This document shows positions 42,189 to 46,131 of a stretch of DNA of 64,000 nucleotides, piece by piece; position 1 is the stretch's first letter; every line of letters begins with the position of its first letter. This DNA is from Bacteroidia bacterium (GTDB taxonomy: Bacteria; Bacteroidota; Bacteroidia; 2-12-FULL-35-15), in contig JAVHPE010000126.1 of assembly GCA_036170475.1 (NCBI GenBank), positions 3,999 through 67,998 of the forward strand, in the 5' to 3' direction. Under the pieces are notes generated by a model. It had not been told where the DNA came from. It did no database searches and was given only the letters and a program-made list of their open reading frames with translations. Made by a program: the position numbers and the translations under genes.

Positions 42189-42244
42189 AATTGGAATATC
42201 TTAAAAATAGTTTGGGCAGCTTTACCCCCATTTCATTAGAAAAA

Positions 42245-42946
42245 ATGGACAAAGTAAAACTGATGGACAGAACAGATACAAAGTATGTTTTTACATTAGC
42301 TCAACTACCAATTCTTCTTGCTGAACTTAAACTGGATTACCATATTGTTGATATAAACGGCAACAGAATCAGCAGGTACGAATCGCTTTATTTTGATACA
42401 AAAAAGTTTGATTTATATCATTGCCATCATAGAGGTAAGCCAAACCGTTTTAAGATACGTTTTAGAAAATATGTTGAGTCTGAAATCTGTTTTTTCGAAG
42501 TAAAATTTAAAAACAATAAAGGAAGAACCATCAAAGATCGTGTAAAACAAAAACAAATTAATAACACAATAAATGGTAAAGCGGAAATTTTATTGAAAGA
42601 AAAAACACCTTTGCTTCCAATTCATTTAGAACCAAAGTTGTGGGTAAATTATTCACGAATTACATTAGTAAATAAAAATTCTCCCGAACGTGTTACTATT
42701 GATATCGACTTAAATTTTAAAAATAATGAGCAGACTATATCTATTAAAAATCTGGTAATTGCTGAAGTAAAACAAAATAAAGCGTTTAGTTCGGCATTTA
42801 CCAAACTAATGAAAAAATACCATATAAGGGAAGGTTCTATCAGTAAATATTGTTTTGGAGTAATAAGTCTGTTTAAAAAAATAAAACATAATAATTTTAA
42901 GCCCGATTTAAATTTACTAAAGAAAATACTTTATACTAAAATCTAA
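42245..42946 (+). CDS. VTC-domain (polyphosphate polymerase domain) protein
   Basis: KVKLMDRTDTKYVF...YESLYFDT...FKIRFRKY is the VTC/CYTH-like signature. The listed ORF begins at a TTG, so the start was moved to the first ATG (MDKVKL). Confidence 0.75.
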   Translation: MDKVKLMDRTDTKYVFTLAQLPILLAELKLDYHIVDINGNRISRYESLYFDTKKFDLYHCHHRGKPNRFKIRFRKYVESEICFFEVKFKNNKGRTIKDRVKQKQINNTINGKAEILLKEKTPLLPIHLEPKLWVNYSRITLVNKNSPERVTIDIDLNFKNNEQTISIKNLVIAEVKQNKAFSSAFTKLMKKYHIREGSISKYCFGVISLFKKIKHNNFKPDLNLLKKILYTKI

Positions 42947-42951
42947 TCATT

Positions 42952-43578
42952 ATGATTCTACTACAGGAAATTAGCGAAGAAGCCGTTAAATCGGGATTTG
43001 AGTTGTTTGACAAGTTAGGACCTAAATTTTTCATCCGCATAGGAATAAATTTTGCCTCTGTATTTATCCTTATCCGGTTTATATATTTTCGAAGATATAA
43101 AAGCAGTGAAAACTTTTTTACATTTTTTATTTTTAACCTCATTATTTTTCTGATTACGTTTATTCTAAATAAATCAGATATGAGTATGGGTGCCGCATTT
43201 GGGTTGTTCGCTGTTTTTTCTATGTTACGATACCGAACAGAAGGAATTAGCACAAAAGATATGACCTACCTGTTTTTGGTTATTGCAATGGGATTAATTA
43301 CAGCCTTAAGCAAAGGCACTTGGTTTGAATTAATATTTCTTAATATTCTTATTATTCTATCCACGTATTTGCTTGAAAGCAGCATGCTGATGAAAAAAGA
43401 AGAAACCAAAATAATACAATATGAAAATATTGAAATGATTCAACCCGAATTTCATACTGAACTAATTGCAGATTTAGAAAAACGAATGGGAATTAAAATC
43501 AATCGCATCTCTATTGGTAAAGTTGATTTTTTAAAAGACACCGCTTTAATAAAAATTTATTATTATGAGTCGAAATAA
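42952..43578 (+). CDS. DUF4956 domain-containing membrane protein (usual VTC partner)
   Basis: GAAFGLFAVFSMLRYRTEGISTKDMTYLFLVIAMGLITAL, immediately downstream of the VTC gene. Confidence 0.75.
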   Translation: MILLQEISEEAVKSGFELFDKLGPKFFIRIGINFASVFILIRFIYFRRYKSSENFFTFFIFNLIIFLITFILNKSDMSMGAAFGLFAVFSMLRYRTEGISTKDMTYLFLVIAMGLITALSKGTWFELIFLNILIILSTYLLESSMLMKKEETKIIQYENIEMIQPEFHTELIADLEKRMGIKINRISIGKVDFLKDTALIKIYYYESK

Positions 43579-43588
43579 GCAAAAGTGC

Positions 43589-44287
43589 ATGTCTTCATTG
43601 AAGGGAAAAGGTATATTGTCGCTGTTTTTCATCACTTTTAGCGTTAGTATAAATAGTTTTTCACAGCCAGTAAATGATGCTGGTATGTGGACAACATTTA
43701 ATGTGGATAAAAAAATTAAAAATGATGTTTCCATCTTCTTAACCGAAGAATACCGGTTGAAAGAGAATTTCACACAAACTAATTTGTTTTATTCTGAATT
43801 AGGACTTGAGATTCGTCCATTGAATTTTCTGAAAGTATCCTTGGCATACCGGATGATTGAAAAAAATTTAATTGATAACACCTTTAGCTTTCGCCACCGC
43901 ATGATGCTAAATATCACATTTAAAAAAAAATTGAAAAAAATTTCCTTGTCTTATCGTCAACGAATTCAAGCCGAAGAAAGAAATATATATTCCAGTGCGA
44001 ACGGAAGGATGCCCGAATGGTATTCAAGAAATAAATTTGAACTGAAATATGATTTAAATAAACCTGTTACACCCTATATCGCGGCTGAATTTCGCTATCA
44101 GATTAACGATCCAAGGAATACTGAATCCAACGGATTATGGCATCGTAGCCGTTATATTATTGGCATAGATTATAAAAGAAACGATAAAAATACATTTGGC
44201 TTGTATTACTTAATTCAAAATGAATACAATGTTTCTTCCCCTGAAAATTTATACATTGTCGGTTTGGAATATTCGTTGTCTTTATAA
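43589..44287 (+). CDS. putative outer-membrane beta-barrel protein (DUF2490-like)
   Basis: Signal peptide ILSLFFITFSVSINSFSQP, alternating amphipathic beta-strand pattern, C-terminal aromatic (LEYSLSL). Family call tentative. Confidence 0.4.
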   Translation: MSSLKGKGILSLFFITFSVSINSFSQPVNDAGMWTTFNVDKKIKNDVSIFLTEEYRLKENFTQTNLFYSELGLEIRPLNFLKVSLAYRMIEKNLIDNTFSFRHRMMLNITFKKKLKKISLSYRQRIQAEERNIYSSANGRMPEWYSRNKFELKYDLNKPVTPYIAAEFRYQINDPRNTESNGLWHRSRYIIGIDYKRNDKNTFGLYYLIQNEYNVSSPENLYIVGLEYSLSL

Positions 44288-44290
44288 AAA

Positions 44291-45487
44291 TTACCTCCTT
44301 TTTCCACCACCACTTCCCCTATTACCAGATTTTGACCCCGAGCTGGGAGTAGAATGTGAAGCAGGACTTGCATGATGCTCTGAACGATTTTGTTTAACTG
44401 ACGGCGACGACTTTTTATTTTCCTTCATTCTGTTACCTTTATTGTTGCTATTATTGTTACTCTTATTATCATTCCCAACTGAAACATTCTTTTCATTTCT
44501 TGTATCCTTATGAAACCCATCTTTAGTAGACTTGTTGTTGTCAACAGATGAATTTGTTCCTTTATCTTTACCTGACGAACGTCCTTCTTTAATTTGATCT
44601 GAACTCGCCCTGTCATACGTATTTTTATATTCTCCCTTTTCTCTTCTTTGATTTACAGTTGCTGACGTTGTTCTTCTCTGCCCGTAGTAATCATGAGCAT
44701 TCGAATTACGATAATGATCTGATCGGTGGTAATAACCATAATAATCATTATAATGATGGTAATGGTAGCCATAATAATAGGAATGCCAGTACAACGGTGC
44801 CCAAGGATTCCAATATCCGGGGTAATAACCCCAACTCCATGGAGAAACATATACTACATACGATGGGAAAAACAGGTAATGAATAATGCTCCAGCTTCCT
44901 ACCGGGTGCCAATAATCATTTATAGTGTTTGTAGAATTGTAATAATTATTAGTTATAGTAGTCGTTTTTTTATCGCCGGATCCTGAGTTAGCAGAGTTGG
45001 CAGATTTAGCACCCGTATATCCCGGATTCGGTGTTCCTCCTGTTGTGGTTTTTTCCACTTCATCTTTTGGTTCAATTATATAATTTTTCCCGTATAGCTG
45101 CTCATCGCCTATAATCTGAATCTGAACTTTTTCATTCTTATCTTTTTCAACTTCAATTACGGCAACATCCTGAGTTTCTTTTTCATTTACCGCTACCTGA
45201 AGAACAATAGCATGTGCAGTTCCTTTCACATTATCTTTTACACTAATATAGTCAATCTTACCATTGCCATTCAAATCAAGATTATTGACTTTAGAATCTT
45301 CAGCATTTAGTTTTTTCTCAAATTCTTCTAATGTTTCAGATTTTTGAAAAAGATCCAGAACACCGTAAAGATTTAGGTTATCTCCCGGCAAACCCAATGA
45401 GTCAGGGGTTATTTTTTCCTGAGAGAAAACAGGAGAGCATAAAAGACTACCTCCTATTATTGTTGCGAAAAACAGCGCTTTTTTCAT
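44291..45487 (-). CDS. secreted protein with Ca-binding-like N-domain and extreme Tyr/His/Trp-rich, then Ser/Asn/Lys-rich, low-complexity tail
   Basis: Signal peptide present. DLNGNGKIDYISV loop. WHPVGSWSIIHYLFFPSYVVYVSPWSWGYYPGYWNPWAPLYWHSYYYGYHYHHYNDYYGYYHRSDHY, followed by a basic polar tail. Confidence 0.5.
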   Translation of the reverse strand: MKKALFFATIIGGSLLCSPVFSQEKITPDSLGLPGDNLNLYGVLDLFQKSETLEEFEKKLNAEDSKVNNLDLNGNGKIDYISVKDNVKGTAHAIVLQVAVNEKETQDVAVIEVEKDKNEKVQIQIIGDEQLYGKNYIIEPKDEVEKTTTGGTPNPGYTGAKSANSANSGSGDKKTTTITNNYYNSTNTINDYWHPVGSWSIIHYLFFPSYVVYVSPWSWGYYPGYWNPWAPLYWHSYYYGYHYHHYNDYYGYYHRSDHYRNSNAHDYYGQRRTTSATVNQRREKGEYKNTYDRASSDQIKEGRSSGKDKGTNSSVDNNKSTKDGFHKDTRNEKNVSVGNDNKSNNNSNNKGNRMKENKKSSPSVKQNRSEHHASPASHSTPSSGSKSGNRGSGGGKRR

Positions 45488-45639
45488 TTTGATAAGTTTT
45501 TATATTAAAGATAAAACAAATACACATTACATTTACGCATAATCATAAACCATTCCAATTTTTATTTATAAATTTACGAGCACCCAAAAATACAAAATAC
45601 CAGCCAATATGATATACTAAAAAATATCGTAGCACTTAA

Positions 45640-46119
45640 GTCCCCCTTGTGAGTTGGACTGTGGGATTGCGAAGGGGGCAGGGGGATGAAAATCTGTTAT
45701 TCATGAACAACCATTACAATAAAAAGTTAAAATCCTTCGCTCAAAGCAATAGAAATTTTTCAACTAAAGCGGAAATAAGAATTTGGTGTGAATTATTGAG
45801 AAATAAAAAAATGTTAGGGTTCCCGTTTTTACGTCAACGACCAATTGAGAATTATATAGCTGATTTTATGTGTAAAGAACTAAATTTGATAATTGAAATT
45901 GATGGCTATTCTCATCAATTCAAATATGAGGAAGATATTGAAAGAGATGACAGACTAAAACAATTGGGATTTCATGTTCTGCGTTTTACAGATGACGAAA
46001 TAACAAAACATATTACAAATGTTGAACGTGCTATTATTCAATGGATAGATAATAAAGAAAAACAATTTCATCCCCCTGCCCCCTTCACTGACGCACATTC
46101 AATCACACAAGGGGGACAA
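45640..46119. mobile_element. DUF559 endonuclease gene bounded by about 49-bp imperfect terminal inverted repeats
   Basis: Left GTCCCCCTTGTGAG-n17-GAAGGGGGCAGGGGGATG at 45640-45688. Right (reverse complement) GTCCCCCTTGTGTG-n17-GAAGGGGGCAGGGGGATG at 46069-46119. Confidence 0.55.
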
Positions 46120-46131
46120 AAAAACAGATAA
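45703..46131 (+). CDS. DUF559 (Vsr-like) endonuclease domain protein
   Basis: NRNFSTKAEIRIWCELLRNKKMLGFPFLRQRPIENYIADFMCKELNLIIEIDGYSH...RDDRLKQLGFHVLRF is the DUF559 signature. Start set at MNNHY. Confidence 0.8.
   Translation: MNNHYNKKLKSFAQSNRNFSTKAEIRIWCELLRNKKMLGFPFLRQRPIENYIADFMCKELNLIIEIDGYSHQFKYEEDIERDDRLKQLGFHVLRFTDDEITKHITNVERAIIQWIDNKEKQFHPPAPFTDAHSITQGGQKNR

Follow-up and report, generated by a model that had tools for sequence, protein, structure and literature searches.

The gene at positions 44291..45487 on the minus strand of the 64,000-nucleotide window analysed here, a stretch of a Bacteroidia bacterium genome, is complete and encodes a protein of 398 residues followed by a stop codon, as judged from the list of open reading frames (ORFs), the translation and the homologues. 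In the reading that we favour, to which we assign a probability of roughly 0.4, the protein would be exported by the Sec pathway and act as a stand-alone component of the periplasm or cell envelope, a peripheral tether or spacer anchored by an aromatic motif together with a cationic tail. This reading draws on sequence comparisons and on predicted structures. From the N-terminus, the protein consists of a signal peptide, an acidic folded head that carries a Ca-type loop, a variable linker, a Trp/Pro/Tyr block of fixed length, a short ordered element and a disordered polycationic tail. The comparisons were made with three alignments, of 20 members, of 90 members and of 16 distant ones, and the family statistics were calculated over 335-370 members.

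The gene is real and results neither from a local expansion nor from a misassembly. The initial annotation placed the ORF correctly but left its strand unstated; the coding strand is the minus strand, and the plus-strand frame over the same interval is riddled with stop codons. All of the strings quoted in that annotation are found in the translation, with DLNGNGKIDY at residues 71-80, WHPVGSWS...YYHRSDHY at residues 193-259 and GSGGGKRR at the C-terminus, and the 139 residues that remain beyond residue 259 fit the estimate of about 130 residues following the aromatic run. The extreme aromatic composition that had been claimed is also evident. Residues 195-270 consist of 26% Tyr, 11% His, 8% Trp and 8% Pro, including 20 Tyr and 8 His, and the combined content of Tyr, Trp and His peaks at 0.47 per 76-residue stretch. 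The runner-up among 50 non-overlapping window ORFs of at least 100 residues each reaches only 0.20, and the mean over all 76-residue stretches of the window ORFs is 0.068 (sd 0.042); the composition is therefore both real and extreme. The window carries a single copy of the gene, within which only three short and weak repeats are present, and this, together with the retention of the aromatic tract in the orthologues, rules out a local repeat-expansion artefact. A homology search of a large protein collection, which had been suggested as a check, returned 4,186 homologues at E ≤ 1e-3, and the tract, whose absence from orthologues was to have marked it as an artefact, is kept in the aligned orthologues.

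Secretion, which had been claimed from the single sequence, is confirmed at the family level by a classical Sec signal peptide at residues 1-22 (45422..45487, minus strand), delimited by hydropathy and conservation. Its n-region contains the pair KK; the hydrophobic stretch behind it scores higher on the Kyte-Doolittle scale than any other part of the protein, and signal peptidase I (SPase I) is predicted to cut after it at VFS|Q, leaving Gln23 as the first residue. An AxA-Q-type cleavage site is found in 317 of 348 members, and Q23 is conserved to at least 90% in the alignments. This corresponds to the Q-rule of Bacteroidetes, according to which SPase I substrates carry a Gln at position +1 (PMC5837995, PMC10653852), and the VFS|Q site of the window protein conforms to it, having a small residue at both −3 and −1 and a Gln at +1. 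A bacterial lipoprotein is ruled out by the absence of a conserved lipobox cysteine, as Cys17 is not a conserved residue and the signal peptides of many members lack cysteine altogether. Nor is the protein recognisable as cargo of the type IX secretion system (T9SS), since a Pfam match to its C-terminal domain (CTD) is absent and residues 298-398 have a predicted local distance difference test (pLDDT) score below 50. With neither of the two routes evident, a periplasmic location is favoured. Shortly past the predicted cleavage site, the protein contains the tripeptide D-S-L at residues 29-31 (45395-45403, minus strand), which fits the general O-glycosylation motif of Bacteroidetes, D-(S/T)-(A/I/L/V/M/T). 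DSL or DST is present at the equivalent place in only 149 of 348 members, and the feature is therefore subfamily-specific.

The predicted mature protein begins with an acidic α/β head at residues 23-140 (45068..45421, minus strand). In AlphaFold2 (AF2) models the head consists of three short helices followed by an approximately five-stranded β-sheet, and its pLDDT of 85-96 over two runs (90-96 in the full-length run, 82-95 in a construct of residues 24-300) is in line with the folded N-terminal domain proposed in the initial annotation. Thirty positions of the head are invariant, His92 among them, and its net charge is negative in all 335 members, with a mean of −13. The Ca-type loop DLNGNGKIDYIS, of the pattern DxNxDxxxD, occupies residues 71-82 (45242..45277, minus strand). 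Its ligand positions are strictly kept over 370 members, with D in 100% at position 1, N or D in 99.7% at position 3, D or N in 100% at position 5 and D in 100% at position 9, while position 8 is I, V or T. The DxDxDG-type pattern D-x-[DN]-x-[DN]-[G]-x-x-D is thus conserved across the members, which lends weight to the earlier description of the loop as Ca-binding-like, and the loop probably binds Ca2+ or another divalent cation.

The likeness to EF-hand and other DxDxDG loops extends to the near-invariant ligands 1, 3 and 5, residue 8 and D9, and to the helix that precedes the loop. Here, however, the loop is single rather than one of a pair and in the AF2 model it exits into a β-strand rather than a helix. 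In addition, Gly6 is found in only 41% of the members and an acidic residue (E) at position 12 in only 18%, and the match to EF-hand_5 is below threshold at 10.7 bits compared with a cut-off of 25.9 bits. A canonical EF-hand is ruled out by these features taken together, although some members are named 'EF-hand domain-containing protein' by UniRef. In view of the weak Gly6 and position 12, the loop is a putative rather than an established cation-binding site.

The head is followed by a variable linker rich in Thr, Asn and Gly at residues 141-194 (44906..45067, minus strand), recognised by its low column occupancy and by a pLDDT below 50 in both AF2 models. Its length ranges from 40 to 69 residues among the 90 homologues, and only the strings TPNPGY and NNYY are semi-conserved. 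The succeeding Trp/Pro/Tyr core at residues 195-253 (44729..44905, minus strand) is of a different nature, as it is defined by invariant positions and a fixed length. The core follows the pattern W-x-I-x-x-Y-x-F-x-P-x-Y-V-V-Y-V-S-P-W-x-W-G-Y-Y-P-x-Y-W-x-P-W-x-P-x-Y-W and continues into a stretch rich in Tyr and His. W199, P208, Y210, S215, P216, P223 and W229 are invariant in the aromatic block and Y213, W217, W219, Y222, W226 and P231 nearly so, and the motif W-x-W-P-x-V-x-Y-x-Y-x-P-x-Y-V-x-W-x-S-P-W-x-W-x-x-Y-P-x-W-W-x-P-W-x-P is kept in proteins of 36-48% identity. In the 90 homologues the aromatic block measures 71-78 residues (sd 1.9), of which 37-57% are aromatic. The term 'low-complexity core' used in the initial annotation is therefore only partly right, in view of the fixed length, the invariant Trp, Pro, Tyr and Ser positions and the distal part at residues 254-291, which is predicted to be ordered. 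The YXWGXW-repeat family of periplasmic proteins in Pfam was not recovered when the aromatic segment was scanned alone at E ≤ 10, the only match being a chance one to Gemini_AL2 (E = 0.73).

The extra richness in Tyr and His of residues 235-260 is a subfamily trait; in distant members R, K, H or V stand in this stretch. This bears on the idea that the tract chelates transition metals and that the protein serves in periplasmic metal binding or buffering, which could account for the many His and Tyr of residues 195-270 as well as for a head with a conserved acidic loop and the invariant His92. The His positions of the tract are, however, not conserved; metal-related neighbours do not recur in 87 loci, and library scans returned no match to a metal-binding family. 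Because distant members show R, K or V where the tract histidines would be, metal chelation, one of the roles suggested initially, is unlikely as a family-wide function, and we consider a metal-buffering role for the protein quite improbable.

The two predictions disagree in their confidence for the core. In the full-length AF2 run, which used the 90-sequence alignment, residues 201-230 have a pLDDT of 88-93 with an overall predicted template modelling (pTM) score of 0.61, whereas in the trimmed run (residues 24-300) the pLDDT of residues 208-250 falls below 50. With a confidence that depends on the construct, the core may or may not be ordered and may be available for membrane insertion. Calculated with the values of the 1996 scale and expressing a propensity only, its Wimley-White interfacial energy is −11.3 kcal/mol per 19 residues, which ranks second among the window ORFs and is on par with genuine membrane helices. 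Since this strong interfacial energy is accompanied by a Kyte-Doolittle score of only 1.2, an interfacial rather than a transmembrane association is indicated.

An alternative topology would be that of a type I inner-membrane protein, with a transmembrane helix at residues 196-216, a periplasmic head and a cytoplasmic location for the aromatic region and the basic tail. Besides the signal peptide, this is the sole moderately hydrophobic stretch of the protein, and the charge distribution is compatible with the positive-inside rule. The hydropathy of 1.2 is nevertheless under typical transmembrane values, the invariant Pro208 and Pro216 lie inside or beside the segment, and distant homologues have R or K in mid-segment, as in VNVWGWPCVRFVYRPAYVAYVSPWRW. 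Moreover, AF2 gives only a six-residue helix at the segment, and residues 254-291 appear to be part of the fold of the periplasmic head. A helix at residues 196-216, and with it a single-pass membrane protein, is rejected on the grounds of hydropathy, the invariant prolines and the R/K substitutions, and we regard this topology as highly improbable.

C-terminal to the core lies an ordered element of one strand and two helices, found in both AF2 runs at residues 254-295 (44603..44728, minus strand), in which Y268, R272, S275, V278, T290 and Y291 are conserved. The pLDDT is 76-92 for residues 251-290 in the full-length run and 82-91 for residues 254-291 in the trimmed run; as both the head and residues 254-291 are reproduced in the second run, they are taken as robustly ordered in the models. 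Residues 254-295 probably dock on the head and form one unit with it, as judged from the pTM, which is 0.61-0.63 although about 40% of the residues are disordered, rather than from the predicted aligned error.

The remainder of the protein is a disordered polycationic tail at residues 296-398 (44294..44602, minus strand), rich in Ser, Asn, Lys, Gly and Arg and with a pLDDT below 50. Residues 301-398 contain 20% Ser, 16% Asn, 14% Lys and 12% Gly and have a net charge of +12. The 'polar basic tail' of the initial annotation is thus present, basic and disordered, but it starts near residue 296 and not directly after the aromatic run, because the intervening residues 254-295 are conserved and predicted to be ordered. 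Conservation within the tail is poor, with majority fractions of 0.13-0.36 that rise to 0.57 at the C-terminal tip GSGGGKRR (44294..44317, minus strand), and among the homologues its length ranges from 15 to 281 residues with widely differing sequence and composition. The charge, on the other hand, is strictly kept: all 335 members examined have a tail of net positive charge, with a mean of +16.7. Of the 335, 259 end in R or K, and 252 have a Gly among the last six residues.

The opposite charges of head and tail could also be explained by self-assembly. In such a scaffold or adhesive, the head of one molecule would bind the tail of another, with Tyr, Trp and Arg acting as stickers that add cation-π contacts, and the product would be a periplasmic gel or coacervate tunable by Ca2+ or salt, or an extracellular glue if the protein were released. 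The strict charge blocks, negative in every head and positive in every tail, would favour phase separation of this kind, as would the middle block with its high aromatic content, the disordered and widely variable tails, and a Y/G/H/K composition like that of mussel-foot proteins. The aromatic block, however, is of fixed length and conserved by position rather than a degenerate array of stickers and spacers, and a part of it is predicted to be folded. A route across the outer membrane is also not evident, as both the T9SS CTD and the lipobox are absent. We therefore view self-assembly as an unlikely, though serious, alternative. A bolder form of the idea, in which the whole family would be periplasmic block polyampholytes, composed of an acidic Ca-loop head, an aromatic clasp and a polycationic tail, that associate head to tail into a cation-tunable gel or condensate and thereby structure the periplasm or bridge the membrane to the wall, is a long shot. 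If it were true, the same solution would have arisen independently in Proteobacteria as DUF3300/YacH, and a first function would be at hand for both.

The peripheral tether or spacer that we prefer could operate as follows. Cleavage by SPase I would expose Gln23, and the acidic α/β head would fold and be displayed in the periplasm. The DxNxDxxxD loop of the head probably binds Ca2+ or another divalent cation, which would stabilise or switch the head, and residues 254-295 would probably join the fold of the head. The fixed-length Trp/Pro/Tyr motif probably anchors the protein at the interface of a membrane leaflet or else offers its aromatic residues for stacking on a glycan such as peptidoglycan. 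Finally, the polycationic tail with its Gly-rich R/K tip would bind an anionic surface, such as the phosphates of phospholipids or lipopolysaccharide (LPS) or the carboxylates of peptidoglycan. The gene, the export signal, the blocks and their charge polarity are read from the sequences; cation binding, the target of anchoring, the compartment and the physiological role are what we infer from them.

Several points weigh against this proposal. The Ca-type loop has the low frequencies of Gly6 and of an acidic position 12 given above, and the predicted confidence of the W/P core is construct-dependent, dropping from about 90 in the full-length model to less than 50 in the trimmed one. The interfacial energy expresses a propensity only. 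Membrane, peptidoglycan and the protein itself are also indistinguishable as binding partners from sequence. In addition, searches for domains, structures and operon partners gave no functional handle for the family, and experimental or omics information was found for no family member.

The architecture is shared by a large family. When 1.84 billion cluster representatives were searched exhaustively with a profile, 1,486 clusters (50% identity) were recovered, including 666 at E ≤ 1e-30, and a survey of GTDB species, each represented by a single genome, confirmed an encoding locus in at least 584 of them. The best 80 of these loci are all from Bacteroidota and represent Flavobacterium, Chitinophagaceae, Cytophagales and environmental Bacteroidales (Prolixibacteraceae, Lentimicrobiaceae and Rikenellaceae). 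The initial annotation considered the protein unusual for a bacterial periplasmic protein; this claim is weakened, as the design is widespread in Bacteroidota and DUF3300/YacH provides an architectural analogue from Proteobacteria. Some genomes encode pairs of paralogues, as in a Bacteroidia metagenome-assembled genome (JAURXZ01), where the products of loci L009 and L010 share 67% and 60% identity with the window protein. One of the JAURXZ01 paralogues (P0016, 503 residues) has a far longer tail that is built of repeats.

The names of the 4,186 homologues are all 'hypothetical' apart from a few automatic labels, and a search for a named homologue in a model organism, such as F. johnsoniae, likewise gave only 'hypothetical protein' entries. 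Nothing above threshold was found in Pfam, NCBIfam and PHROGs with either the whole protein or its separate segments; a profile search of the PDB sequences gave 0 matches at E ≤ 1, and no PDB match by fold was found. A functional characterisation was not found in the literature on this family, DUF3300 or yacH. The automatic labels on members P0332, P0333, P0272 and P0113 contradict each other, with 'DUF3300', 'YML083C' and 'EF-hand' domain-containing protein among them, and none of these is reproduced on the four proteins by current Pfam models. The family merits a model of its own, and the stray labels should be corrected.

The family is among the larger Bacteroidota-specific exported ones without a Pfam or NCBIfam model, a structural relative or a published function, and it combines three unusual features, namely a strict charge polarity, a Trp/Pro/Tyr motif of fixed length and an architecture that parallels DUF3300/YacH without detectable homology. 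This architecture is clean and testable and appears to be convergent, with no structural precedent found. Braun's lipoprotein is not known from Bacteroidota, and finding the location of the protein and the ligands of its motif and tail could reveal a new kind of envelope-organising protein in this phylum.

The gene stands alone in its genomic context, as a given neighbour family is common to at most 13 of 87 loci. In the window, a tightly packed trio of VTC-domain, DUF4956 and DUF2490 genes (42191-44287, plus strand) converges on the gene and ends 3 bp from its stop codon. From the Pfam names, we take the trio to be polyphosphate-related. Its adjacency to the gene is not conserved in other genomes, and one Flavobacterium has a Porin_O_P (phosphate-porin) neighbour; a phosphate or polyphosphate link was dropped as a coincidence, since these neighbours do not recur. 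On its other side, the gene diverges from genes for DUF559, DUF1456 and a PIF1-like helicase. The divergent pair of DUF1456 and helicase is kept in close relatives. The endonuclease-like DUF559 ORF (45649-46131, plus strand), which lies between the gene and this pair, looks like a local insertion, because DUF1456 is the immediate divergent neighbour in two related loci (L002 and L004).

Upstream of the gene, approximately 50-90 nt 5′ of the start codon, an alignment of upstream regions revealed the conserved block GTAAATTTATAAATAAAAATTGGAATGGTTTATGATTATG (45538..45577, minus strand). The aligned regions come from loci L002, L004, L008, L009 and L011-L014, the proteins of which are only 52-69% identical. 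The block of about 40 nt reads GTAAATTTATAAAT..TTGGAA[C/T]GGTTTATG and holds the 10-bp palindrome ATTTATAAAT and a GGAAC-like element. Of the 13 closest loci, 11 carry the core TTGGAACGGTTTATG at −27 to −72, mostly at −54 to −72. The block is a probable clade-specific promoter or operator, which may serve either this gene or the divergent DUF1456 gene. A family-wide promoter of the extracytoplasmic function (ECF) type with a GGAAC element is not supported, as 17 of 83 loci contain the core, compared with a background of 0.16.

One homologue is encoded in a 735-kb record labelled 'uncultured phage' (LR756501.1, 657903-658640; locus L088, 3998-4981, plus strand). It is 43.5% identical over residues 1-299 and its architecture is complete, with a signal peptide, the head, the W/P/Y motif and a basic tail rich in Asn, Gln, Pro and Arg that ends in GGGMR. 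Directly 3′ of it lies a second ORF with a signal peptide, of 278 residues, and no PHROG match is found. Either a huge phage of Bacteroidota carries an envelope gene derived from its host, or the assembly includes host DNA.

Among known systems, the core stretch PW-x-W-x-x-YP-x-WW-x-PW-x-P resembles ILPWKWPWWPWRR of the indolicidin and tritrpticin type. The likeness extends to the R residues at many of the x positions in distant members and to a favourable predicted interfacial energy. Indolicidin and tritrpticin, however, are short free host-defence peptides, whereas here the motif is embedded in a bacterial protein of 400 residues, conserved by position and may be partly folded. A second parallel concerns the composition rich in Tyr, Gly, His and Lys, which resembles that of mussel-foot adhesive proteins, as residues 220-260 are rich in Y/G/H and are followed by basic residues. 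The mussel proteins differ in being degenerate, repetitive and reliant on 3,4-dihydroxyphenylalanine (DOPA), while the present tract is of fixed length and conserved by position, and its extreme Tyr/His content is limited to this subfamily.

The closest parallel in overall design is offered by DUF3300 (PF11737), the family of E. coli YacH, and the protein might be thought a divergent member of it, particularly as UniRef calls the Flavobacterium members P0332 and P0333 'DUF3300 domain-containing protein'. For comparison, true DUF3300 proteins were taken from E. coli (YacH), Paraburkholderia (WP_015004196.1) and a C. metallidurans CH34 megaplasmid ORF, with further sequences from Sinorhizobium, Rhizobium, Ralstonia and Burkholderia; eight were aligned. 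The order of blocks is the same in both families, consisting of a signal peptide, a folded domain whose end reads ...IEP, an aromatic and Pro-rich motif and a long basic disordered tail. The motifs are also similar, with VIYVPxYxPxVVY..YPxYPPYYWPP in DUF3300 and YVVYVSPWxWGYYPxYWxPW here, sharing V-[IV]-Y-V-P/S followed by Y-P-x-Y, and the DUF3300 tip ...GGGGRR is of the same kind as GSGGGKRR (GGGRR type). The DUF3300 proteins of alpha-, beta- and gamma-proteobacteria (L089-L096) nearly all end in (G)nRR after a basic disordered tail of 100-250 residues; the tail of E. coli YacH consists instead of Q/R/E-rich repeats.

The differences between the two families are nevertheless considerable. The head domains are wholly different, since DUF3300 has a helical N-terminal domain with (A)PIALYPD repeats in 8 of 8 sequences in place of the α/β head with its Ca-type loop, and the PIALYPD motif was not found in three alignments of the present family. 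A Gly/Ala-rich hydrophobic segment follows the aromatic motif in DUF3300 and is absent here. DUF3300 is proteobacterial and the present family belongs to Bacteroidota. DUF3300 genes are paired with DUF2950, which lies directly 3′ of the Paraburkholderia gene (L089, 3690-4619), whereas the 87 loci of the present family have neither this partner nor another conserved neighbour. With hmmscan, the window protein, its aromatic segment, P0332 and P0333 gave no PF11737 match at E ≤ 10 (the gathering score being 25 bits), while true DUF3300 proteins score 308-315 bits; hhalign of the two family profiles gave a probability of 10% over 12 columns, and below 5% for every pair of sub-domains. Membership is rejected on these two comparisons, and a divergent DUF3300 origin appears decidedly improbable. 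DUF3300 itself has no known function; it has only been noted to be secreted, induced in nodules and accompanied by DUF2950 (PMC4653623), and yacH is listed among CpxR- and Rob-dependent genes (PMC9600279, PMC7537768). As far as profile and motif comparisons can tell, the relation between the two families is one of shared design, and not of homology or membership.

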